DNA of 34,734 bases, from IMG/VR virus record IMGVR_UViG_3300032237_001402, positions 1-34,734 of that record. The stretch is one strand, 5' to 3'. This stretch comes from a virus (taxonomy: Duplodnaviria; Caudoviricetes). The position numbers were made by a program, and so were the translations under genes. Below are positions 4,595-32,745 of this stretch, piece after piece (the stretch's first letter is position 1; each line of letters starts with the position of its first letter). The notes under the pieces are model-generated. The model was not told the origin of the DNA. It searched no databases and saw only the letters and a list, made by a program, of their open reading frames with translations.

Positions 4595-7261
4595 ATGGAA
4601 ATACTTGATCTGATAGCAAAAGTAAGTTGGGAAACAAATGAGAAGGCGCTTAAGGGCTTGTCTCAGGAATTATCTAACCAGGACAAACATCTTGAAGAGC
4701 TCAAACTCAAAGGCGCAAGGCTTAACGATCAGATGTCTAAGACCAATGATCCTAAGAAAGTTAAGACCTTAAACGATGAGCTTGGTAAAACAAAAAAAGC
4801 GGTAGATAATATCACTGAAGCCCACAAGAAACAAGCTACAACGGTTGATACGCTTCGCAAAAAACAATCCGACCTTTTAAAGGAAATCACCAAGACCAAT
4901 GACCCGAAGACGGTTGAGGGCTTGCTTAAGAATCTAAAGAATGTTGAGAAGCAGATGGACTCTCTCGCAGCTAAATCAAAAGGAGGTGGTTTAGGAACTT
5001 CGCTGCTCGAAGGATTTGGATTAGGAGCAGGTGTATTTACGTTTACTGCCGCCATCGAAGGTATCAAATCGTTTGTAGGCGACTCTATCTCAGAGTTTGA
5101 GGATGCCGAGAAAACAGCGTTAAACTTACAACGTGCTCTCCACGTTATCGGCAAGGATAAATACTTTGAAGGATTAAAAACAGAAGCAGATCAATTAGCA
5201 GAACAGTTTCACGGTTTATTTGATAACGATGATATTATCAAGGCTCAAACGGCTTTGGTTCAATATGGTAAGTTGAGCCGTGATGAGATTTCAAAAGTTA
5301 CCCCTGTTATCCTTGAACTTGCAACCAAAATGGACGGCGATTTGGTTGGGGCATCCGAAAAGGTGGTGAATATTTTAGAAGGACGCGGAGGTCAAACCCT
5401 GCGAGATTACGGTATCAGTGTAAAGGGCATTAAGACCGAACACGATCGTTTGAATGTGGTGCTTGGAGAGTTTGCAACTAAGTTGGCAGGAAGTGCAGAT
5501 GTTTGGGCAAAGACTGCAGAGGGGATGGAGGCAATCAACAAAACGTCGCTTAAAAACATAGAAGAAAATTTGGGTTCTACATTTGAGAGAATCAAAATAA
5601 AAATCCTTCCAATAATCACAGGGGCATTACAGGCTTTAAACTATGCGCTAGAAACACCTGCAGAAAAAGAAAACAGGCAGGAGACGCTTGTGAAAAATAA
5701 ATATGCGGGCTTGATTAAAAATTTCACCAAGGATCAAATTGAAATTGAAAAACAATCCTTGCGTGATAAAGAAAGAGAGTTGGACAAGTTGCGCATTGAG
5801 ATTGATCATAAGCAGAATGACTTATTGAAGGCTATGAATGACGACCGATCCGCAGCCTTGCAAGCTTCTTTGGAAAAAGATATTGAGAAATCGAAAAAAT
5901 ATCTTGAACAACAAACCACAATCCTAAAAGGGAAACATTTAGCCCTTCTCGGATTGGCGCCAAACGATAAAGGCGCTTTAAATCCTAATGCAAAAGATGC
6001 CGACCCTGAAGCAGAAGCAAAAGCAGCGGAGGAGGCAAAGCGAAGAGCAGAGGAAGCGAAGAAATATGCTATTGATCAAGCCAAGGTTATCAATGATGCC
6101 AAGCTCGCACTCATGGACGCACAAGACCGCGAGGAGAAACTTTTATTTCAGAAGAACGAGGAGGATAAAAAGAAACTCAAAGGCGCCAGCGACCACGATA
6201 AGCTCGTAGTTGAACAGGCTTACCAAAAAGAACTGAAAATGATTCGTGATAAGTATGCGAAGGCTTATTATGATGGATTGTATGATCAGGACCTAAAAGC
6301 GAAAAATGAAAAAGAGCAAGCCTACAAAGATTCAGAAGCTAAGGAAAAAACACACCAACAACATATCGCAGATCTTATTAAAAAGGGTGGTGCTGAACTT
6401 GTTCAAGGCGCAAAAGACGAGAAAGCAGAAAAGAAGAAGCTGGATGATGCGGAAGCTGCAGCCGAAAAAGAACTGATTGCCAATGCCAATAGTTTAGAAA
6501 CTCAAATTTCAAGCATATACACCACTGAGATCAATCATATCAACGAATTAATTTCAGCACAGGAAAAGCGTGTGGAGGTTGCAAAAACATCAAGCAATGC
6601 GAGTCTGAAAATAGAGCAGAACCGATTGGATGAGCTGGTTCGCAAGCGTGATCGGTACGAGAAGCAGCAACGAACAATAGATGCGGCAACCATTGTGGCA
6701 AATCAAGCCGTAGCCATATCGGGCGCTGTTAAAACCATAGCAAGCGGAGGCAATCCGGTGCTCATTGCAGCTAATGTGCTGGCTATCTTAGCCGGTATCG
6801 CAGCTTCAGTAAGTGCAATCAGGTCCATCAACCAGGGAGGGCAAGGATTTAGAGATGGAGGTTACACAGGCGATGGAGATCCGACAGATGTTTCAAACTC
6901 TTTGGGCAATAGAGGCTACAAATACCACAAAAAAGAATTTGTGATGAACGAATCACTCACATCCAAACATCGAGATATGTTGGAGGGCATGCACACAGGC
7001 AAGCTCATTGCTAAAAAGATGGGTGGAACTTACGTACTGATGCCTCGAACGCTTGATGTAGATAGCGCCATTGCCGACCACAACACTGTAAAAACAAATT
7101 TGAATACTGCCAGTATGGAAGGCTTGCTGAAATCGATTGATGATAAACTATCGGGCAGAGAAGTGAATGTGCATTTCAATGCCGATGCCGATGGCTTCAG
7201 CACACGTATTGCTTCTCAACTTGGACGCTTAAGTATTATAAACCAAATGAGAAACTCCTAA
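4595..7261 (+). CDS. Tail tape measure protein (888 aa)
   Basis: Long helical/coiled-coil protein, Gly/Ala hydrophobic segments, C-terminal FRDGGYTGDG...HKKEFVMN motif common in TMPs. Confidence 0.88.
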   Translation: MEILDLIAKVSWETNEKALKGLSQELSNQDKHLEELKLKGARLNDQMSKTNDPKKVKTLNDELGKTKKAVDNITEAHKKQATTVDTLRKKQSDLLKEITKTNDPKTVEGLLKNLKNVEKQMDSLAAKSKGGGLGTSLLEGFGLGAGVFTFTAAIEGIKSFVGDSISEFEDAEKTALNLQRALHVIGKDKYFEGLKTEADQLAEQFHGLFDNDDIIKAQTALVQYGKLSRDEISKVTPVILELATKMDGDLVGASEKVVNILEGRGGQTLRDYGISVKGIKTEHDRLNVVLGEFATKLAGSADVWAKTAEGMEAINKTSLKNIEENLGSTFERIKIKILPIITGALQALNYALETPAEKENRQETLVKNKYAGLIKNFTKDQIEIEKQSLRDKERELDKLRIEIDHKQNDLLKAMNDDRSAALQASLEKDIEKSKKYLEQQTTILKGKHLALLGLAPNDKGALNPNAKDADPEAEAKAAEEAKRRAEEAKKYAIDQAKVINDAKLALMDAQDREEKLLFQKNEEDKKKLKGASDHDKLVVEQAYQKELKMIRDKYAKAYYDGLYDQDLKAKNEKEQAYKDSEAKEKTHQQHIADLIKKGGAELVQGAKDEKAEKKKLDDAEAAAEKELIANANSLETQISSIYTTEINHINELISAQEKRVEVAKTSSNASLKIEQNRLDELVRKRDRYEKQQRTIDAATIVANQAVAISGAVKTIASGGNPVLIAANVLAILAGIAASVSAIRSINQGGQGFRDGGYTGDGDPTDVSNSLGNRGYKYHKKEFVMNESLTSKHRDMLEGMHTGKLIAKKMGGTYVLMPRTLDVDSAIADHNTVKTNLNTASMEGLLKSIDDKLSGREVNVHFNADADGFSTRIASQLGRLSIINQMRNS

Positions 7262-15701: not shown

Positions 15702-15851
15702 ACATACTTGCAAACCTTACGCGAGGGTATCGCGGACAACAAAAACCCTTGGCTTTGATTCGTGAGCCTTAATAAATCAGAATCACTTTAATTGGTGTCA
15801 GTTCCTACCTATGCAAGTGGACAAGAACTAACTTATTTCCAATTAATTACA

Positions 15852-16937
15852 ATGGCAAATAATAATGCAACGTTTATTATTCAGAAAAAACTTTCTGATA
15901 TTTTCTCGGGCAAGCCTTATCGTAGTAATGTCGGAACGTTAGACTTTTTATTCTCTCCAGCAAATGGCTCGCAAATGCAAGCCAATTTGATAGGTAAGCC
16001 TAATGGCAAGAATACAAGATACGTTGTGACACGAAGAAAGACAGCTTGTACCGCAGTTGTTACGGCTGAGCCAGCCTGCACAGATGCAGGCACAGACGTA
16101 GACATGACTGACTACACCACGTATGACTCGTTTGACTATGCAGGATCTGCATGGCATAACGCACCAATCTCATCTTTCAGAGACCTCGGATCATTGGACA
16201 TTCAAGATGTAATGGCCGGATTCGCTTACGACCAAATGGGTAAAATCAAAGATGCCGTTAGCTTGGCAGGTTTGTTGGCGCTCAACACCAACGCAGGGTA
16301 TGCTTCTGCTTCAGCTCAAACTAAAAAATTGAAGTTGATCGACGACGCTACAAAATCTCCTGTTTGGAATGTTGATACATCAATCAAACTTGATTTTGCT
16401 GATGCCGGTTTCCCTGACATGCCAATCCTTATCGGTAACCGATCTATCGCTTACTGGAAGGATACGGTAAAGCGTGCCAGTATCAACAACAACGGATTAA
16501 ACGTAGGTGCTATTGATACGCTGAACGCGTTCTATGACATCAACGTAAACGCAACAAACACAGCACCTACTGAGGTAGGTAATGATGTATTGTTCGCCGT
16601 GTTACCACAAGTGGCAAATATTATCACTTGGTCAGCTAATACCGGAATTTTCGCATCTCGTACAAACAGTATCAGCCTTCTTGATATGAAAACTATCAAC
16701 ATGGTAAATACCGATAACACAACATTCATGTTCACAACAATTGCCGACCCTGCAACGGGTATGGTGTTTGATTATGACATTGTGTTTGATCCAAAATGCA
16801 AAAAGTTCCAATGGCGCGTTGGATGTTACTACAAAGTAGTAATGCTTCCCTTAATCGGATGCAAGGATTCAAACTTCAACGGTATCGTTAAGTATGATGT
16901 GTGTCCGCTTTCTGACGTGTTCTGCAACAATCCGTAA
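15852..16937 (+). CDS. Major capsid protein (361 aa)
   Basis: Start moved to ATG 15852 (MANNNATF); size, position after scaffold, followed by a strong terminator. Confidence 0.78.
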   Translation: MANNNATFIIQKKLSDIFSGKPYRSNVGTLDFLFSPANGSQMQANLIGKPNGKNTRYVVTRRKTACTAVVTAEPACTDAGTDVDMTDYTTYDSFDYAGSAWHNAPISSFRDLGSLDIQDVMAGFAYDQMGKIKDAVSLAGLLALNTNAGYASASAQTKKLKLIDDATKSPVWNVDTSIKLDFADAGFPDMPILIGNRSIAYWKDTVKRASINNNGLNVGAIDTLNAFYDINVNATNTAPTEVGNDVLFAVLPQVANIITWSANTGIFASRTNSISLLDMKTINMVNTDNTTFMFTTIADPATGMVFDYDIVFDPKCKKFQWRVGCYYKVVMLPLIGCKDSNFNGIVKYDVCPLSDVFCNNP

Positions 16938-21309: not shown

Positions 21310-23103
21310 ATGAAACAACTACTTTTTGTGATACTGACACTTATTTCAGTACAAAGCTTTGGACAAAGTTATGGTGGCGAAATACGCGCCAAACGTTATA
21401 CAGGCGATACCATACCGGCTAAACCTATTTACCGCAGCGATTCATCGTTATTTGTGTATAATACAAATCCGCATGTGAAAGTCGATTCCATTGGATCTGT
21501 GGTTGCTGTAGTGGATAGTAACTCACAACGTAAGTACATTCTTATACCTCGCTTAAAGCCAAATACAGATACCGTTATTTCTCAACTCTACGGCATCAAA
21601 GTAGATTCGATTAATACAAATCTAATTCTCACCAACGCAGTGCTTAACGATATCGATGCCTATGTAACCAACTTGGCTACTATCGAAACCCATACACAAC
21701 ACAGCTCGGATATTTTAGATTCGATTAAAGGCTATTACTACTTACCCGGACGCACTACACTTACATCCGATAAGGGTAAAATAATGATGGGCGCGGTAAC
21801 CGCATCTGCACCTGCATACTCTACAGGTCAAACCAACTATTTATCGCTCGATGCAAAAGGCAATATACGAATGGTCCAAGATACATCGCTTGTTGCACGC
21901 AATCTAAATGCTAACATTACGAGGTTCAAATCAAGTACCGATACTGTTACAACCAATACCACACAAGTGATGGATTTGTTTGTAACCGGGCAAGGTTCGC
22001 AAACTACAGTTGGTAATAATGTAATACTAGCCACCGCTGGTGCAGCATCGTATAATACTTTTAATGGCTCTTCAAATTCATATCGGTCATTATCGTTGCA
22101 AATAGTAGTATCGGGTACCGTTAGTGCCGGAGCTATTAATTTTGAAGGGTCAAACGATTCCACAAACTATTCATCAATCTATTTATACGATGCCAATAAT
22201 CCCTTAGTGGCACCGGTTGCAAGTTATAGTCTTGCTACAAATACCACGCGCTATTGGACAGGTACCATTCCCTTTAAATTTATACGGGCTCGTATTGCAA
22301 CAGGTATTACGGGTGGTGCAACATGCCAAGCCTTCACCGTTCTGCGAACTGTACCTTATACACAGCCAACAATTTCAATAGCTGCAGGAACGCAAACCAT
22401 CGGTCAGGTTAATACCAATGTAAACTCAGCTACAGCCCTCGGCGATTTATCTCAAATGACTACCGAGGATGCTGCAAGTGGAAATGGTTATTATGGATTT
22501 AAAATTGTAGATGTACGAGCGGATACCTTAACCCCAAACGGCACATCAAGTGCCAATGGCGATTGGTCGCAACGTTCTGTTACAAAATACGGATCTAGTT
22601 TAACAAAACTAGAATCTACGCATAAACGTAGCTACTCGGCAGCTTTTACGGTAGTACCTGCATCAAGCTGCACCGATTTGGTTGAGATCATTGGCAGCTC
22701 ATCCAAAACCGTATCCATCAATAAAATTATCATCTCAGGTACCCAAACCACAGGAGGCGAACAAACATTTTATTTAAAACGAAGGTCCACCGCATCCACC
22801 GGAGGCTCATCAACCACAGCCACCTTAGTACCACACGAGGCAACAGATGTTGCGGCAACTTCAAGCATAAAAATATTTACAGCCAATCCTACCACAGGCT
22901 CTGCGGTGGGCGATATACGTGTTTTGGGTATACCTATACCGGCAACTACGGCAACAACAAAATACCAAGAGGTGATAGATTTTGGCGAGCGAAGCAAACC
23001 CATCATTCTTTCGGGTACCTCGCAAACCCTTTGCATTAATTTAAACGGTGCCACGCTTACAGGTGGCTCTATCAACATATCAATCGAATTTACTGAAGAA
23101 TAA
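21310..23103 (+). CDS. Fibre/adhesin-like protein with Sec signal peptide (597 aa)
   Basis: MKQLLFVILTLISVQSFG/Q; Thr/Ser/Gly-rich multi-domain beta protein at the usual tail-fibre position. Confidence 0.65.
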   Translation: MKQLLFVILTLISVQSFGQSYGGEIRAKRYTGDTIPAKPIYRSDSSLFVYNTNPHVKVDSIGSVVAVVDSNSQRKYILIPRLKPNTDTVISQLYGIKVDSINTNLILTNAVLNDIDAYVTNLATIETHTQHSSDILDSIKGYYYLPGRTTLTSDKGKIMMGAVTASAPAYSTGQTNYLSLDAKGNIRMVQDTSLVARNLNANITRFKSSTDTVTTNTTQVMDLFVTGQGSQTTVGNNVILATAGAASYNTFNGSSNSYRSLSLQIVVSGTVSAGAINFEGSNDSTNYSSIYLYDANNPLVAPVASYSLATNTTRYWTGTIPFKFIRARIATGITGGATCQAFTVLRTVPYTQPTISIAAGTQTIGQVNTNVNSATALGDLSQMTTEDAASGNGYYGFKIVDVRADTLTPNGTSSANGDWSQRSVTKYGSSLTKLESTHKRSYSAAFTVVPASSCTDLVEIIGSSSKTVSINKIIISGTQTTGGEQTFYLKRRSTASTGGSSTTATLVPHEATDVAATSSIKIFTANPTTGSAVGDIRVLGIPIPATTATTKYQEVIDFGERSKPIILSGTSQTLCINLNGATLTGGSINISIEFTEE

Positions 23104-24267: not shown

Positions 24268-24495
24268 TTTTGTTTGCTGCACCTATTTATTGAAACCCAA
24301 TGAATACGGTGTTTGCAGGGCTGTAAGAAGTCCTGTTCTGGGCACGACTTAAAAACACGCAAAACCCCTGTAATTACTGCATTACGGGGGTTTTTGTTTG
24401 TTGCACCTAATCGATGGACGTACAAAAAAAGTACAATGTTTGTACATATCTGTGTAGTTTTGTTGCACCTATTGTTACACCCAATGTTGCACCTA
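24268..24495 (+). other. attP: tRNA 3'-end core plus arm-type repeats
   Basis: Core AAGTCCTGTTCTGGGCAC (24328-24345) reads as T-loop end, T-stem, acceptor strand and discriminator A; TGYTRCACCYA repeats at 24275, 24399, 24461, 24473, 24485. Confidence 0.8.
24361..24395 (+). terminator. Terminator downstream of the att core
   Basis: AAAACCCCTGTAAT-TACTGC-ATTACGGGGGTTTTT. Confidence 0.7.
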
Positions 24496-25620
24496 AGCAA
24501 TTATTCCCTCTCCATCATCTTCACCGAAAAGAAAAACGGATCCGGGATCGTGTATGTCCAAGTCCTGGTTAATAGGAAACGATTACTAAAGACAACAGGC
24601 ATCAATTGCCGCAAAGAGAATTTTATAAAAGGTGCTGCAGATTTCAAATACATTTCTCGTAAGGATCCACAGCACGAGTACAAGAATCAACAAATCCGAA
24701 TGGCGTATAATGATGCCGAAAAAAGTTTGCTGGAGGTGATCAGGTTGTATGGAAACCTAAACATAGACCTTGCTAAAATTGCCATCGATAACAAGTACTC
24801 AAAAATTGATACGCTGGCAGAATATGCCCAGCGCTACATCGATACCAAACCTTTAGCCGAGAATACAAAAAAGCGATACGGGGCGATTTTAAGAACGAAT
24901 ATACTGCCCGAATACAAGAATACCGGCATAGTAGAAATCACGCCCAAATGGTTAGGATTATTTCATCAGAAGCTCATTAAGGATGGATATGAAGGAACGA
25001 GTATTTGGACCATATTCAAGTTCATAAAATCGGCGCTCAATCTTGCTGCAGATAGTATCGAATTTCCTTTCCCGATAGGTAGTAAGAAAGGGCAGTACAA
25101 GATGCCTCCATACAAGAACCCGGAGCGGCATTTTCTGAGCCTGGAGCAAATCGAAAAAATTAAGGAGTACCATAACTCAACAGATACAACCTGGAGAAAT
25201 GCGAGCCGTTGGTTTGTGCTGCAGATTTATCTTGGATGCAGGGCCGGAGATTTACAAAACTATTCAAAACATCAAATCAAAGATGGCCGGTATTATCTCA
25301 CAGACGAAAAGACTGAGAACCCGCATTACATACCTATGTATCCCAAGCTGCAGGAAGCGATAGACAACATAGAACGACCGATAAGCAGCTATGACAAATA
25401 CAACAAAGCTGTGAAGGCAATTGGGCGCGATATGGGGCTACCTTTTGAGCTGACAACCCATGTGGCCAGGCACACATTTGCGGTAAGTAAATTAAATGCC
25501 GGTGTAAGTACAGAAACCACCATGAAAACAATGGGTATTAAGAAGCACAGCACCTTTGCCGTGTATGGTAAAATTACGGATGCTAAGATTGATCGAGAGT
25601 TTGGAGAGAAGATGAATTAA
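24484..25620 (+). CDS. int: Tyrosine integrase (arm-binding, SAM-like and catalytic domains)
   Basis: Start moved to ATG 24484; GIVYVQVLVNRKR arm domain; GCRAGDL, HVARHTF, catalytic Tyr in FAVYGK. Confidence 0.92.
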   Translation: MLHLSNYSLSIIFTEKKNGSGIVYVQVLVNRKRLLKTTGINCRKENFIKGAADFKYISRKDPQHEYKNQQIRMAYNDAEKSLLEVIRLYGNLNIDLAKIAIDNKYSKIDTLAEYAQRYIDTKPLAENTKKRYGAILRTNILPEYKNTGIVEITPKWLGLFHQKLIKDGYEGTSIWTIFKFIKSALNLAADSIEFPFPIGSKKGQYKMPPYKNPERHFLSLEQIEKIKEYHNSTDTTWRNASRWFVLQIYLGCRAGDLQNYSKHQIKDGRYYLTDEKTENPHYIPMYPKLQEAIDNIERPISSYDKYNKAVKAIGRDMGLPFELTTHVARHTFAVSKLNAGVSTETTMKTMGIKKHSTFAVYGKITDAKIDREFGEKMN

Positions 25621-26388: not shown

Positions 26389-27045
26389 TTACTGGGTCTT
26401 CTTGCTCATCCAGCCATCAATAAGCCACACGGATCGGATCATCTTGGTTGGTATCTCAAAGGGTTCGTAAAAAGGGTTAGCTGATTCGAGTAGAAACTTA
26501 TCGGGATCCTGTGATTTGCGGATGTACTTTAGGTATCTTCTATTGTCATCCATACTGATGGCATAAATCTGCCCAAACTCCAAATGATCGCGCCAATTCT
26601 TTAACTTGGAGCAAAACATTATGTTGCCGGCTTTCATGAGCGGCTCCATGCTATCACTATACACATTAAACGCCGCACAGCCTTTAAAGATGGGGATGTC
26701 CATCATGTACGATGGTTGCACATTATCGGTGCCTAGCATCTCAATATTACCGGCTGCAAAATCTACATCATAAAAAGGCACTTGATTGAATTGGTCTAAT
26801 ACTCGCTGCTTTTTCACCTTCCCTTCAGGGGATAGGGTGATATTGGAAGGAATAGTGGGCTGAGATGAGACACTTTGTAATATATCTCGATACTTCGATT
26901 TAAGTAATTCAACTATCTTACCGTTTCCTTTTGTCTTAGCTGTATTTAAATAGGGTCTAGAATAGCCTATTCTACTGGCTATCTGCTCAATGCTTTCATT
27001 TGTTCGGTACTGGATTTCTTTTAATAACTGCTCAAGTTCATTCAT
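26389..27045 (-). CDS. cI: CI-like repressor with S24 autopeptidase domain
   Basis: N-terminal HTH (SIEQIASRIGYSRPYLN), Ala-Gly site FAAG, catalytic Ser in DSMEP and Lys in YLKYI; start moved to ATG 27045. Confidence 0.9.
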   Translation of the reverse strand: MNELEQLLKEIQYRTNESIEQIASRIGYSRPYLNTAKTKGNGKIVELLKSKYRDILQSVSSQPTIPSNITLSPEGKVKKQRVLDQFNQVPFYDVDFAAGNIEMLGTDNVQPSYMMDIPIFKGCAAFNVYSDSMEPLMKAGNIMFCSKLKNWRDHLEFGQIYAISMDDNRRYLKYIRKSQDPDKFLLESANPFYEPFEIPTKMIRSVWLIDGWMSKKTQ

Positions 27046-27197
27046 CTTACATAGTGTTAACAATACGTTTGCAAATAAATATTACAAAGTGTTTGATAAT
27101 CTTACAAATTGTATTTATCATTGCATTGTGATTCGGTTGTAAATCAAAAGTACACAAATAATTCACAAATAGAACAAAAGTAAAACACATTAACAAA
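27046..27197. promoter_or_regulatory. Lysis/lysogeny switch region with promoters and operator repeats
   Basis: TTTG (27092) N20 TATCATTG (27116) rightward; TACTTTTG on the minus strand at 27145 and 27175; TTACAWAKTGT at 27047, 27082, 27102. Confidence 0.65.
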
Positions 27198-28709: not shown

Positions 28710-30680
28710 ATGCAAATCAAAATACGCAAAATCAAACTGACTAATTTTAAGGGGATCCGTTCGATGGAGATTTCCTTTAATCAATTAACCAATATCTATG
28801 GCGAAAATGCTGCAGGTAAAACAAGCATATTCGATGCCTTCACATGGTGCTTATTCGGAAAGGATTCGTGCGACAGAAAAGACTTCGAGGTGAAGACATT
28901 GGATGCTAACAACCAAGTAATACCTCAGATCGAACACGAAGTTGAAGTTGAACTACAGGTTGAGCTGCAGGTAATAAACCTCAAAAGAATTCTTCGCGAA
29001 AAGTGGACCAAGAAACGCGGTGCACCCACAGCAGAGTTTACAGGCAATGAGAATGTATTCTTTTGGAATGATGTTCCTTTGAACGCAGGAGAATTCCAAG
29101 CCAAGGTTTCGGGCATAGTAGACGAGAGTCTTTTTAAACTGATCACCAACCCACTTTATTTCAATACCAATATGAAGTGGCAAGATCGCAGATCAGTACT
29201 TTTTTCAATGGCCAATACGATAGATGAAGCTTCGATATTCGGTAAAATAGCAACACCGGATAATCAACAAATGATTGATGACATACGTACAATGCTCAAT
29301 CAAGGTAAATCGATCCTGGAGTACAAAAAAGAAATCGCTTCTAAAAAGAAGAATTTAAAAGAAGCGCTTGATGCCATCCCTACCCGAGTTGATGAGGCGA
29401 ACAGATCCATGCCACAACCGGAAGATTACGCTGCCATCGAGCAAAAGATTCAATACTTCAAAGATCAGATCAAAATCATCGATGATAAGAAGGATGATAT
29501 TACCAAGGCGCATACTGAAGCCAATCAGTCCATACTTGACAAGCAGAATGAGTTGAACGCCATGAAATCAAAAGTTCAACAACTCAGATATGAATTATCT
29601 AATTCCAATACAAGTGCCATCAATACACTTAAGCAACAGATTCAAGAATTGGAATATGCAATATCCGGAGCCAAAGGATCTATTCAAAGAAATGAAAATT
29701 CGATCCACGAAAACCATCAACAGATTTCACAGTTAGAAATTGAAAATACGAATCTGCGTAATCGATGGAATACTATCAACGAGCAGGAATTTACAATGGC
29801 CGATGATAAGACCGTATGCCCTTCTTGTTTGCGCAAATTGGATGAAAATAAAATATTTGACATTGAGCAAGAACTTAGAAACAACTTCAATGCATCAAAG
29901 ACTGCGCAACTAGATCAGATCTCTACGTCCGGGAAGTACAATGCCGGCATCATAGAAAAAAGAAAAGCAGATTCAGCACAGTGTAACGACGCTATTTCGA
30001 AGTTGAATTCTAGTATTGAGGCAAATGAAACGGCTATCAGAATTAAACGTGGCGAGCTTTCCAATCTTCAAAACAATATACCACAACCTACTCAGGAAAT
30101 ATTAGACCTTGAGAACAAGATTAGCACATTTGTTATTCCTGAAGCAACAACAAAAACCGATTTCACAGAACTTAATAATCAGCGAGCACAATGTCAATCA
30201 GAAATTGATGAACTAAACAAGAAGCTTGCCGGTAAATCTTTAATCGATACCATCAAGCAAAGAATTGATGAGCTCAATAAACAAGAGGCTAATTACGCTC
30301 AACAACTTGCCGATTTGGAGGGGCAAGAATTTGTGCTTGATTCATTCAACAAGATGAAAATTGATAGCATGGTTGAGTCTGTGAATAGTAAGTTCTCAAT
30401 CATCAAATTCAAATTATTCGAATCTCAAATCAACGGTGGCGAGGTTGAGTGTTGCGAGGCTCTCGTGAATACGAATGGCGCCTGGGTACCATACTCATCG
30501 GCAAATACAGCCGGACAGATTGTAGCCGGTATTGATGTCATAAATACATTATGCCGCCACCATCAGGTGTATGCTCCAATCTTCATCGATAACAGAGAGT
30601 CAGTGAATGAACTGATCCCATGTGAAAGCCAAATCATCAACCTCATCGTATCTACCGACAAACAATTACGCATTAATTAA
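28710..30680 (+). CDS. SbcC/Rad50-like coiled-coil ATPase (656 aa)
   Basis: LTNFKG, Walker A GENAAGKT, long coiled coil with zinc-hook CPSC, C-terminal PIFIDNRE. Confidence 0.88.
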   Translation: MQIKIRKIKLTNFKGIRSMEISFNQLTNIYGENAAGKTSIFDAFTWCLFGKDSCDRKDFEVKTLDANNQVIPQIEHEVEVELQVELQVINLKRILREKWTKKRGAPTAEFTGNENVFFWNDVPLNAGEFQAKVSGIVDESLFKLITNPLYFNTNMKWQDRRSVLFSMANTIDEASIFGKIATPDNQQMIDDIRTMLNQGKSILEYKKEIASKKKNLKEALDAIPTRVDEANRSMPQPEDYAAIEQKIQYFKDQIKIIDDKKDDITKAHTEANQSILDKQNELNAMKSKVQQLRYELSNSNTSAINTLKQQIQELEYAISGAKGSIQRNENSIHENHQQISQLEIENTNLRNRWNTINEQEFTMADDKTVCPSCLRKLDENKIFDIEQELRNNFNASKTAQLDQISTSGKYNAGIIEKRKADSAQCNDAISKLNSSIEANETAIRIKRGELSNLQNNIPQPTQEILDLENKISTFVIPEATTKTDFTELNNQRAQCQSEIDELNKKLAGKSLIDTIKQRIDELNKQEANYAQQLADLEGQEFVLDSFNKMKIDSMVESVNSKFSIIKFKLFESQINGGEVECCEALVNTNGAWVPYSSANTAGQIVAGIDVINTLCRHHQVYAPIFIDNRESVNELIPCESQIINLIVSTDKQLRIN

Positions 30681-30700
30681 TAAAAACCAATACTAGAATT

Positions 30701-31606
30701 ATGACAAATGTAGCAGCGCCGGTGCAACCGGCACAAAACCAAGCAGTACAGGCTCCTCAACAACGCGAGTTAGTGGATGGAGTACTTTCAAGAATATCTT
30801 CATTTCAAACTACCGGAGACTTAAAGCTTCCAAAAGATTACAGCGCTGAGAACTCGGTACGGGCCGCATGGCTCATCCTTCAGGAAACAACAGCCAAGCA
30901 GGGCAATGACTACTTGCCAGTGCTACAAGTGTGCACCCAGCAATCAATTGCAAATGCACTCCTAAAAATGGTACTGCAGGGATTGAATCCAAACAAACGT
31001 CAATGTTCATTCATTGCCTATGGTAACAAACTGACCCTTCAACGTGAGTATGCCGGTTCCATAGCTATCGCCAAGCGAAACGGAATGAAAAATATATCTG
31101 CAAATGTGGTTTATGAAGGAGACGAATTTGAATTTATTATGGATGTGGAATCGGGTCTAAAAAAGATTACGAAGCATGTTCAATCACTTACGACCATGGC
31201 AAGTGGTAAGATCGTCGGGGCCTATGCTTATGTGGAGATGGAAGACGGACGTAAATCGGTTGAGGTGATGACCATGGCACAAGTACAAGCAGCCTGGAAC
31301 CAAGGACCAAACAAAGGACAATCACCGGCTCATAAGAATTTCCCTGATCAGATGGCTATGAAGACAGTTATTAATCGAGCTGTGAAAATATTGATCAACT
31401 CATCAGATGATAGTGATTTGTTTACCGATGAGGATGAAAATACCACTGTTGATGCTAAAGCAGAAGTGGTTCGCCAGGAGATTATTGAACACGCGAATAA
31501 AGTAGAAATTGGATTTGAGCCGGAACAACAAGCAGAGATCAATTCGAATCCTGTTACAACCGATACAGTTAAAGTAGAAGAACAAACTAAAGGTCCAAAT
31601 TTCTAA
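30701..31606 (+). CDS. recT: RecT-family single-strand annealing protein
   Basis: GLNP...IAYG...YAG, VYEGDEF, IVGAYA, MAMKTVINRAVK motifs. Confidence 0.9.
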   Translation: MTNVAAPVQPAQNQAVQAPQQRELVDGVLSRISSFQTTGDLKLPKDYSAENSVRAAWLILQETTAKQGNDYLPVLQVCTQQSIANALLKMVLQGLNPNKRQCSFIAYGNKLTLQREYAGSIAIAKRNGMKNISANVVYEGDEFEFIMDVESGLKKITKHVQSLTTMASGKIVGAYAYVEMEDGRKSVEVMTMAQVQAAWNQGPNKGQSPAHKNFPDQMAMKTVINRAVKILINSSDDSDLFTDEDENTTVDAKAEVVRQEIIEHANKVEIGFEPEQQAEINSNPVTTDTVKVEEQTKGPNF

Positions 31607-32349
31607 TGAAACTCAAAGTACTAGGCAGCTCATCCAAAGGCAATTGTTACATTCTTGAGAATGATAGTGAAGCGCTCATTATTGAGTGTGGTGTGAAGTT
31701 CGATAAGGTGAAGCAAGCCTTAAATTATAATCTACGCAAAGTGGTGGGCTGCCTATTAACGCATGAGCATGGTGATCATTCAGACTATACGATAGATTTT
31801 ATGAAGGCCGGAATCAATGTATGGTCCTCACAAAAAACACATACTGCAATAGAGTGTATAAATCATCATAGAGCATCAATCTTAGAAGCTGGTCATTGTC
31901 GGTTAATGGGTGGATTTTCGGTGAAAGCATTTGATGTACAACATGATGCTGCATCACCTCTTGGGTTTCTGATTAACCACAACGACACAGGAAATGTTTT
32001 ATTTCTTACAGATTCATTCTATTGTAAATACACTTTTCGTCATCTCAACAACATTATCGTTGAGACCAACTACTCAAAAGAAATCATCGAGAAGAAACGT
32101 TCACAAGGGTATTTACCACAATTCCTGAACGATCGCATCATCAAGTCGCACATGAGCCTGGAGACGTGCAAGGAATTGTTAGAGGCAAACGATTTAAGTC
32201 AAGTAAACAATATCGTGCTTATTCATCTGAGTGATGGCAATTCAGATGCTGCGCACTTTCAAGAAGAAATTAAAAACCTAACCGGTAAAACTGTACATGT
32301 TGCAGATGCAGGAGTGGTTATTGAAAACTTTGGAAAGACACCTTTCTAA
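31606..32349 (+). CDS. MBL-fold metallo-hydrolase (probable exonuclease)
   Basis: LGSSSKGN, THEHGDH, HD, ETNY, HLS motifs; coupled to recT. Confidence 0.9.
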   Translation: MKLKVLGSSSKGNCYILENDSEALIIECGVKFDKVKQALNYNLRKVVGCLLTHEHGDHSDYTIDFMKAGINVWSSQKTHTAIECINHHRASILEAGHCRLMGGFSVKAFDVQHDAASPLGFLINHNDTGNVLFLTDSFYCKYTFRHLNNIIVETNYSKEIIEKKRSQGYLPQFLNDRIIKSHMSLETCKELLEANDLSQVNNIVLIHLSDGNSDAAHFQEEIKNLTGKTVHVADAGVVIENFGKTPF

Positions 32350-32427
32350 AACGGCCAAGCGGAATCTTGGATTAGATCTTAATTAATGTTAATGAATGAG
32401 GGAGCAGATTAGAGGCTGCTCCCAACT

Positions 32428-32564
32428 CGGGAAGTGGCGGAATTGGAAAGACGCTCAAGAATGGTGATGTAAATCGGATAGATGTGGCCTTGGAAGATAT
32501 AGCAGCCATTTGAGATAAATAAACAGACCACGATGTTTTGCAGGTTCGAATCCTGCCTTCCCGA
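32428..32564 (+). tRNA. Atypical tRNA-like gene (137 nt) with no assignable anticodon
   Basis: Acceptor CGGGAAG/CTTCCCG plus discriminator A; D-arm TGGCGGAATTGGAAAGACGC; T-arm GCAGG-TTCGAAT-CCTGC; 85 nt between the D and T arms. Confidence 0.75.
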
Positions 32565-32582
32565 CAACCTTTTATAATGGAT

Positions 32583-32745
32583 CCCGAATTGAGTTCGGGT
32601 AGGTGATACCACCGAGAGAACCGATTGCACGAAGGTATCAAATGCAATCTCCTTCAAGCTGCTTGGTAGACAGCGAAGATGACAGAGATAAGGATTACAC
32701 AATTGAGTGACAAGTTACCTGACAGGCTGGAAAGACAGCCATTTT
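32583..32745 (+). ncRNA. Putative structured RNA downstream of the tRNA-like gene
   Basis: Hairpin CCCGAA/TTCGGG, crossing helices TGATACC/GGTATCA and GATTGCA/TGCAATC, hairpins GCTG/CAGC and GGCTG-GAAAGA-CAGCC. Confidence 0.45.

Follow-up and report, generated by a model that had tools for sequence, protein, structure and literature searches.

The window, by which we mean the whole 34,734-nt stretch of the viral record IMGVR_UViG_3300032237_001402, holds a real and intact member of a class of phage RNAs in which the acceptor, D and T arms of a tRNA-Leu form a shell that has no anticodon arm. The class is apparently uncatalogued and large; ARAGORN misses it and Rfam files it as plain tRNA. We propose, with about an even chance of being right, that these RNAs are natural tRNA scaffolds, in which the host's tRNA-processing enzymes would cut out a stable RNA that displays an exchangeable cargo. 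The evidence comes from the anatomy of the window's shell, from its many relatives, and from genome positions at which the shell is kept and the middle replaced.

All the canonical elbow and acceptor features of a tRNA-Leu (7-bp acceptor, 5-bp T stem, D arm with GG, U8-A14, 15-48 and A73) are present in the window's shell, much as a reading made from the letters of the DNA alone had described its acceptor, T and D arms. Sequence and constrained fold agree on an acceptor stem of 7/7 Watson-Crick pairs (32428-32434/32557-32563) that begins with C1-G72 and includes G3-C70; the T stem (32540-32544/32552-32556) closes a canonical T loop, giving a 7/5 acceptor branch, and the D stem (32437-32439/32452-32454) is accompanied by U8, A14, A15 and a loop with GG (G18G19). 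With A73 at 32564, U48 at 32539 and a U at position -1, both tertiary-type pairs, U8-A14 and A15-U48, are kept, and no stem of the shell holds a mismatch. CCA is not encoded, the bases after A73 being CAA, and beyond position 26 the RNA has no anticodon stem, 7-nt loop, U33 or Leu anticodon; the earlier reading was right on both counts, and on the excess length of the RNA (137 nt against 80 nt for a Flavobacterium tRNA-Leu). The cloverleaf with a long arm lies 0.2 kcal/mol above the minimum. With the Rfam tRNA model the shell scores 32.3 bits (cut-off 29; E 0.004), which is the sole Rfam match above cut-off in the window; a weak TD-1 match at 15791-15903 on the minus strand (29.6 bits against a cut-off of 64.5, E 0.43) is probably due to chance. 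ARAGORN, which had been suggested as a check, returned 0 genes at the locus, and when run with introns and a lowered score it made 56 calls over the window, which amount to noise. A Logan contig covers 31600-33300 with 0 differences, and as it is possibly the window's own source it is not an independent confirmation; two further runs from the same study matched the locus over short parts or not at all. An att-site remnant was considered and rejected, the integrase being 7 kb off and both shell halves being able to pair.

Table 1. Features of the window that bear on the shell RNA and its surroundings
Feature	Coordinates	Strand	Details
Integrase	24313-25620		
cI-like repressor	26389-27063	-	
Upstream early genes: SbcC-like ATPase, RecT, metallo-beta-lactamase-fold hydrolase	28710..32349	+	Context, outside the RNA
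8-bp hairpin, ending 4 nt 5' of the shell	32400..32423	+	-16 kcal/mol, z -4.2, 0/200 shuffles as good
tRNA-Leu-type shell RNA gene	32428..32564	+	137 nt (predicted 140 nt after CCA addition)
Shell 5' half: acceptor 5' strand, U8, D arm (A14, A15, G18G19)	32428..32454	+	81.5% identity to L429 shell half
Middle (putative cargo) replacing anticodon and variable arms	32455..32539	+	85 nt; helix 32459-32465/32505-32511, weak hairpin 32521-32538
Shell 3' half: T arm, acceptor 3' strand, discriminator A73	32540..32564	+	Sequence, Rfam tRNA match, constrained fold
3' trailer (11 nt same in L429) and companion structured RNA, at least 3 hairpins	32565..32700	+	Alignment to L429, fold
UGAC-stem-GGAAAGAC-stem hairpin, motif accompanying shells	32720..32740	+	1 window match against 0.04 expected

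Of the long irregular hairpin that the sequence-only reading had drawn at 32455-32514, one 7-bp helix stands, with pair probabilities of 0.77-0.85 when the shell is held in the fold, and the hairpin as a whole is no better than chance. The outer TCAA/TTGA register is absent from the shell-held fold, the inner pairs reach a probability of only about 0.4-0.5 in it, and the segment as a whole folds at -7.9 kcal/mol (z +0.66), a value that 147/200 shuffles equal or better. The stem likened to a variable arm (32521-32525/32534-32538) is indeed present, but it is weak (-1.8 kcal/mol, 18/200 shuffles as good), and the complete middle folds no better than its shuffles (z +0.4). By blastn, no homologue of the middle was found among 50,697 phage records, in which the shell region gave no match at E 0.01 and no place with 80% coverage at E 10. 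Patterns specific for the window's acceptor gave 1 match and then 5 matches in viral contigs, all with other middles, and 0 matches in metagenomes; the best identity of the window's middle to another middle of the class is 0.61, against a median of 0.49. Being weakly folded and without a homologue, this middle lends no support to selection on the window's own cargo. An antisense role was tried and rejected: a 14-nt perfect complement to 22445-22458, inside a 597-aa ORF, is matched by 28/1000 dinucleotide shuffles and equalled by 24/405 other genome windows, and the best duplex with the 39 annotated start regions is matched by 77/100 shuffles.

The class was delineated with a first pattern that joined a D arm to a T loop across 70-100 nt and left the acceptor unspecified except for G7. 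This pattern found 46 viral stretches, 2 matches among 185,579 prokaryote genomes, one in a Flavobacterium and one in a Chitinophagia MAG, and, when slightly loosened, 113 metagenome matches. The 160 matches with full flanks, the window included, reduce to 107 unique sequences and 65 families at a middle identity of at least 70%; one candidate, L178, proved to be a true tRNA-Leu with a duplication, of the att-site remnant type, and was dropped, leaving 64 families. Though outside the search pattern bar G7, the acceptor is paired 7/7 in 57/64 families, and U48 is found in 60 of them, C74 in 58, U-1 in 50, A73 in 48 and an encoded CCA in 3. The middles are mutually unrelated across families, with the median identity given above, and an anticodon-like canonical hairpin occurs in 1/64 middles against 1.7 expected. 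With middles of 43-70 nt added (64 stretches), the set grows to 156 unique shells in 98 families, 89 of which have a perfect acceptor. Their 47 distinct acceptor stems, tallied with 3 misregistered rows left out and with statistics that ignore kinship, hold 252 Watson-Crick, 20 G-U, 3 A-C and 7 other pairs; the excess of G-U over A-C (p 0.0005) points to an RNA on the shell's strand. The discriminators of the 98 families (A 79, G 11, U 6 and C 2, with 19 families lacking A73) are variable, which makes a class-wide synthetase identity or leucylation unlikely, and because acceptor sequences turn over so freely the Pro-like C1-G72 pair of the window carries little weight.

A second scan was anchored on the 3' end alone, for the commonest acceptor type, which is not that of the window; it returned at least 137 loci, and the number of IMG/VR stretches with this acceptor type is estimated at about 1,900. 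Of the 168 matches listed, 6 lie too near the end of their locus and 6 are without an acceptor partner, the remainder representing 154 unique units. Among these listed units (n=154), U8 is present in 149, A14 in 133, a 3-bp D stem in 143 and the D-loop GG in 134; position 15 pairs as A15-U48 in 122 and as G15-C48 in 5; U-1 is found in 129 and C74 in 150, CCA is encoded in 4, and an anticodon arm occupies its canonical position in 3. Since the D-arm features are kept even though they lay outside this search, their conservation is not an artefact of the pattern. The lengths of the listed units form a continuum from 70 to 190 nt, which a neutral spacer would give as well. The window falls squarely in this class, with its D arm, T arm, paired acceptor, U-1, U48 and C74, its lack of CCA and of an anticodon arm, and its unrelated middle. 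Several shells may occur on a single contig, with middles that differ (L222; L010/L230/L231). In cultured phages the whole shell was not found by blastn, and the Rfam tRNA model returned only 72-79-nt units from four cultured records and G003. Tenacibaculum phage pT24 carries a pair of 79-nt genes (L282:5790-5868 and 6157-6235) that are near-identical, are labelled 'tRNA-Undet' and have an abnormal anticodon arm; they are a possible relative of the class among cultured Bacteroidota phages.

The new evidence is that middles are exchanged as blocks at fixed genome positions, as deduced from comparison of related phages. In the pair L428/L430, the 400-nt flanks are 93.5% and 95.5% identical and both shell halves 96%, and the middle is 50% identical, a level that 44/500 shuffles reach; this pair lies inside an 8-kb block that is 92.7% identical between the two 36-kb temperate phages G005 and G006. 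A wider comparison took in 390 flanked units, collected with a descriptor that admits canonical tRNAs too, and yielded 64 pairs in which both 60-nt flanks are at least 80% identical: 54 have a common middle, 7 have unrelated middles and 3 are intermediate. The 7 unrelated pairs are few and not independent, and represent five genome positions; for four of them longer flanks could be compared, and these are 77-94% identical upstream and 71-85% downstream, against 32-45% in the middle. At one position (L423 against L415/L319), the middle is in one case close to that of tRNA-Leu(UAA), with an unusual anticodon arm, and in the other a 69-nt cargo; this alternation is possibly a trace of the origin of the class from tRNA-Leu.

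Elsewhere in the class the middles look selected, to judge from their folding and from pair changes in alignments. Over the 64 families the mean folding z is -0.85, with 8 below -2. RNAalifold, applied with kinship ignored to the nine largest families, finds compensatory middle pairs in four of them (5, 1, 4 and 6 pairs; L001 has 5, L039 has 4 and L002 has 6) and none in five, mostly because those five hold too little variation. In the L004 and L039 families the middle stays constant while the acceptor sequence changes with full compensation, and L172 has a middle near-identical to that of L004 and a changed acceptor. By eye, a second middle helix is changed on both strands between L022 and L168; it is absent from the RNAalifold result and suggests a pseudoknotted cargo. 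L006 (1483-1629, minus strand) has a middle in common with L218, L233 and L245, with compensated T-loop-like hairpins, and an extra 5' hairpin of its own; middles thus also grow by insertion of modules.

The closest relative of the window's shell is L429, which lies in the temperate phage G004, whose cI is 46% identical to that of the window over 158 residues, and which occupies a similar site, behind cI and an exonuclease gene. The two shells have C1-G72 in common, pair 2-71 is compensated between them, the 11-nt trailer is identical, and the middles are unrelated (137/300 shuffles as good). Behind the trailer the resemblance continues as a companion RNA: the local alignment of window and L429 beats 300/300 shuffles, the fold of 32578-32745 has a z of -2.2, and 4/16 predicted pairs have changed on both sides with none broken, a count from two sequences only and a covariation argument made weaker by the position of the G004 copy inside a frame open from an upstream ATG. 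The companion RNA (32565-32720; L429:740-890) has no Rfam match, and a model built on the two sequences recovered only its two training copies from 99 sources; a pattern for the downstream hairpins gave 23 matches, all of them unrelated on inspection. Two loops of the companion RNA, at about 32606-32609 and about 32634-32637, are mutually complementary and could form a kissing pair.

Hairpins of the kind that precedes the window's shell abut the shells of 15/94 families against 1.9 expected, with 3 at a site 50 nt further upstream; they also stand before 8/92 canonical tRNAs of the same loci. A second element, the UGAC-stem-GGAAAGAC hairpin, occurs in 27 copies in 651,616 nt of shell loci and in 0 copies in 392,376 nt of control loci, a contrast that is inflated because the controls are mostly coding DNA. 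This hairpin often stands 4-6 nt before a shell (L004, L008, L011, L020, L044, L105 and others), and the D loop of the window holds the same eight letters as GGAAAGAC. Flanking ORFs favour the shell's strand in 33/39 loci, and an ORF start lies within 40 nt of the shell in 14/36 shells.

The window itself is the 34.7-kb record of a temperate phage, with a terminase small subunit, a tape measure, an integrase and a cI-like repressor. Its rightward operon runs from the SbcC-like ATPase through RecT and the hydrolase (ending at 32349) to a 426-nt gap, two small ORFs and ParB, and the shell sits in this gap, on the same strand as the operon. Among cultured phages, RecT and the hydrolase find their best matches in those of Cellulophaga, Porphyromonas and Bacteroides (46-50% identity), and phages of Marinitoga and Clostridium come nearly as close for these two proteins; the host is probably a member of the Bacteroidota. 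The hydrolase (31606-32349) shares 50% identity with a Porphyromonas phage protein whose annotation is Apyc1-like anti-Pycsar nuclease, but its gene stands in an ordinary SbcC-RecT-hydrolase block. Of its 27 relatives found, 4 are near-duplicates, and 0/23 inspected loci carry a shell within 520 nt behind the gene, which leaves a functional link between hydrolase and RNA unsupported; a neighbour search guided by ParB found no relatives. The closest hydrolase relative (74%), L047, carries an ORF with a 66-nt tandem repeat after 3238 and a tRNA-Met about 1 kb on. A type II hammerhead ribozyme (L074:3891-3961) lies about 1.8 kb downstream of the L074 shell.

We propose a model for the window RNA that most reasonably fits these observations. 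The RNA would be transcribed together with the RecT operon, and RNase P would then make the 5' cut at 32428, behind the U at -1, followed by 3' trimming and CCA addition, all of which are established steps of tRNA processing. After this cut, the hairpin at 32400..32423 would be left to protect the upstream RNA at its 3' end. The product would be a stable RNA of about 140 nt that displays its middle as cargo, and middles would be exchanged between phages by recombination in the near-identical shell halves. Most speculatively, the cargo might act early in lytic growth as a decoy or aptamer that binds a protein of the host or of the phage, and conflict with hosts might drive the turnover of cargoes. 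The sequence-only reading had argued against random decay, and the retention of the shell with compensation over a large class, with middles replaced wholesale, bears this argument out. For the same reason, among the three options that it had offered (a scaffold with cargo, a decoy, or a tRNA with an unusual small intron), the scaffold with cargo is the best, and the intron goes unsupported. A bolder form of the scaffold model, which we put forward tentatively, is that Bacteroidota phages may have reused one Leu-tRNA frame thousands of times, both as a processing and stabilising tag and as a recombination handle, with cargoes swapped like cartridges. The cargoes could then be unrelated structured RNAs, perhaps decoys or aptamers against host proteins, with the window holding one such cartridge, a suggestion that we regard as possible rather than probable.

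The conserved RNA directly behind the shell and the strong hairpin that ends 4 nt before it, together with the frequency of such hairpins in the class, the nearby ORF starts and the weak folding of the window's middle, would also fit the main rival reading, that the shell marks a site at which the early polycistronic RNA is cut and insulated, the middle being a tolerated filler. RNase P and the 3'-end enzymes would here leave the upstream recombination-gene mRNA with a 3' hairpin and free the companion RNA. We consider this reading rather unlikely, as canonical tRNAs of the same loci have the abutting hairpin too and single contigs hold several shells with differing middles; moreover, a cutting mark has no need of a middle of 45-140 nt, yet the middles of some families carry compensatory changes. 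It is unlikely that the shell itself is the active part, as a tRNA mimic that can be neither cleaved nor used in decoding and that titrates proteins which bind the elbow or the acceptor, such as LeuRS, EF-Tu or the tRNA-sensing and tRNA-cleaving proteins of host defence, with middles that vary to avoid a recognisable anticodon. Discriminators vary and acceptors turn over, so that no single synthetase identity holds, and an anticodon-nuclease decoy should have retained its anticodon loop. In its favour, all elbow contacts are kept among the listed 3'-anchored units, many copies per genome would raise the dose, canonical anticodon hairpins are as scarce in the middles as the counts above indicate, and the window has A73 and A15-U48, both of which are relevant to LeuRS.

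We regard it as quite improbable that the gene is a remnant, decaying or selfish, of a repeat present in many copies and homogenised by gene conversion, with neutral DNA trapped inside. One acceptor type is near-identical in dozens of families, the window's middle has no homologue and none of the 23 inspected hydrolase loci has a shell behind the gene, all of which speak for such a remnant; but the window's copy is free of mismatches in every stem, its pair 2-71 is compensated relative to L429, the acceptor stems show the bias of G-U over A-C, and the shell is the sole T-loop motif in the window, which therefore offers no conversion donor. A small intron, removed by splicing to give a decoding tRNA as proposed for Lak phages, is very improbable indeed. 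Introns in phage tRNAs have been proposed before (PMC6784885), and under relaxed rules the removal of 32469-32508 would restore a 5-pair stem with a GGU triplet, four neighbouring cuts giving 4 pairs. However, the 5-pair solution arises in 27/100 shuffles and a 4-pair solution in 93/100, no solution is left when a pyrimidine is required at 32, and the 5-pair cut falls inside a stem, leaves a 27-nt variable region and puts a Thr triplet on a Leu body. Furthermore, one Lak sequence in the accessible part of that source (PMC6784885) keeps both strands of the anticodon stem around its insert, just 3/154 of the listed units have an anticodon arm in place, and Rfam gives no group I or group II intron match at E up to 1 for the 85-nt middle.

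If the scaffold model is true, phages evolved the same trick that biotechnology uses for RNA expression, and each middle is a ready-cut candidate for a regulator or an anti-defence RNA. The natural middle-only pair L428/L430 makes the role of T4-type 'stable RNAs of unknown function' directly testable. Furthermore, a phage tRNA that is oversized or of undetermined type does not have to contain an intron or be a pseudogene.

The window RNA is outside the families of tmRNA, allo-tRNA, intron-tRNA and T4 RNA C, and no published description of the class was found in the full-text literature covered. In tmRNA, acceptor and T arms close a large domain that replaces the anticodon arm. The G3-U70 pair of tmRNA is absent from the window and from the class stems (0/47), the window RNA measures 137 nt against about 350 nt, its middle has stops in all three frames and no tag-like end, its D stem is kept, and neither Rfam tmRNA nor ARAGORN gives a match. 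The PeSL cassettes of T4-type phages are short conserved frames that let variable DNA be swapped by recombination; those frames flank protein genes, whereas in the window's class a single RNA supplies the frame with its two halves. The tRNA-associated theta ribozyme is HDV-like, with its G1 at most 5 nt from the tRNA 3' end according to the portion of the report available (PMC10879173), and in the window the first G after A73 comes 14 nt downstream. Allo-tRNAs and irregular tRNA polycistrons are likewise tRNA-like, in some cases non-translational and in some cases found in phages; the allo-tRNAs and selC* described in the available portions of the reports have an 8/4 or 9/3 branch and an anticodon arm, in contrast to the 7/5 branch of the window and its missing arm (PMC5389517, PMC7609411). 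The 'enigmatic intron' tRNAs of Lak megaphages are also oversized, come from Bacteroidota phages and defeat classification by standard tools, but those in the accessible part of the paper are typed as Tyr, Phe, Thr, Gly and one low-score Leu, with an anticodon, and their inserts are near-identical across genomes, whereas in the window's class middles are replaced and the anticodon arm is lacking (PMC6784885). Five tRNA-like RNAs are among the candidate viral RNAs in the available part of another survey, whose models could include such shells (PMC10690425).

Two systems come closer. In the engineered tRNA scaffold, as given in the available part of its description, the acceptor, T and D arms are kept and the anticodon stem-loop is swapped for a cargo, which yields a processed and stable RNA in E. 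coli (PMC3753655); the same arms are kept in the window. The engineered scaffold is man-made and, in that description, retains a hairpin at the insertion site, whereas positions 26-48 are free in the window's class and hold 1-4 helices (PMC3753655). T4 RNA C (species 1 RNA, rnaC; AF158101 70908-71046) is likewise a phage RNA; it is stable, measures 139 nt and carries a T arm at its 3' end, and as in the window a long arm and a second hairpin replace the anticodon and variable arms. It differs in lacking U8 and a D arm with GG and in its imperfect terminal stem, where the window has a full Leu-type D arm, and it is strongly folded (z -4.6), unlike the window's middle; furthermore, its gene is classed as late and stands among the tRNA genes of a lytic phage, whereas the window's gene is part of an early operon of a temperate phage and belongs to a class in which middles are exchanged. 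Sequence homology between the two is likewise absent, the blastn of the shell region against the 50,697 phage records having returned no match at E 0.01. The functions of T4 RNA C and D are given as unknown in the available parts of two reports (PMC3014915, PMC9697503). The window RNA most likely works in the manner of the tRNA scaffold and of T4 RNA C.
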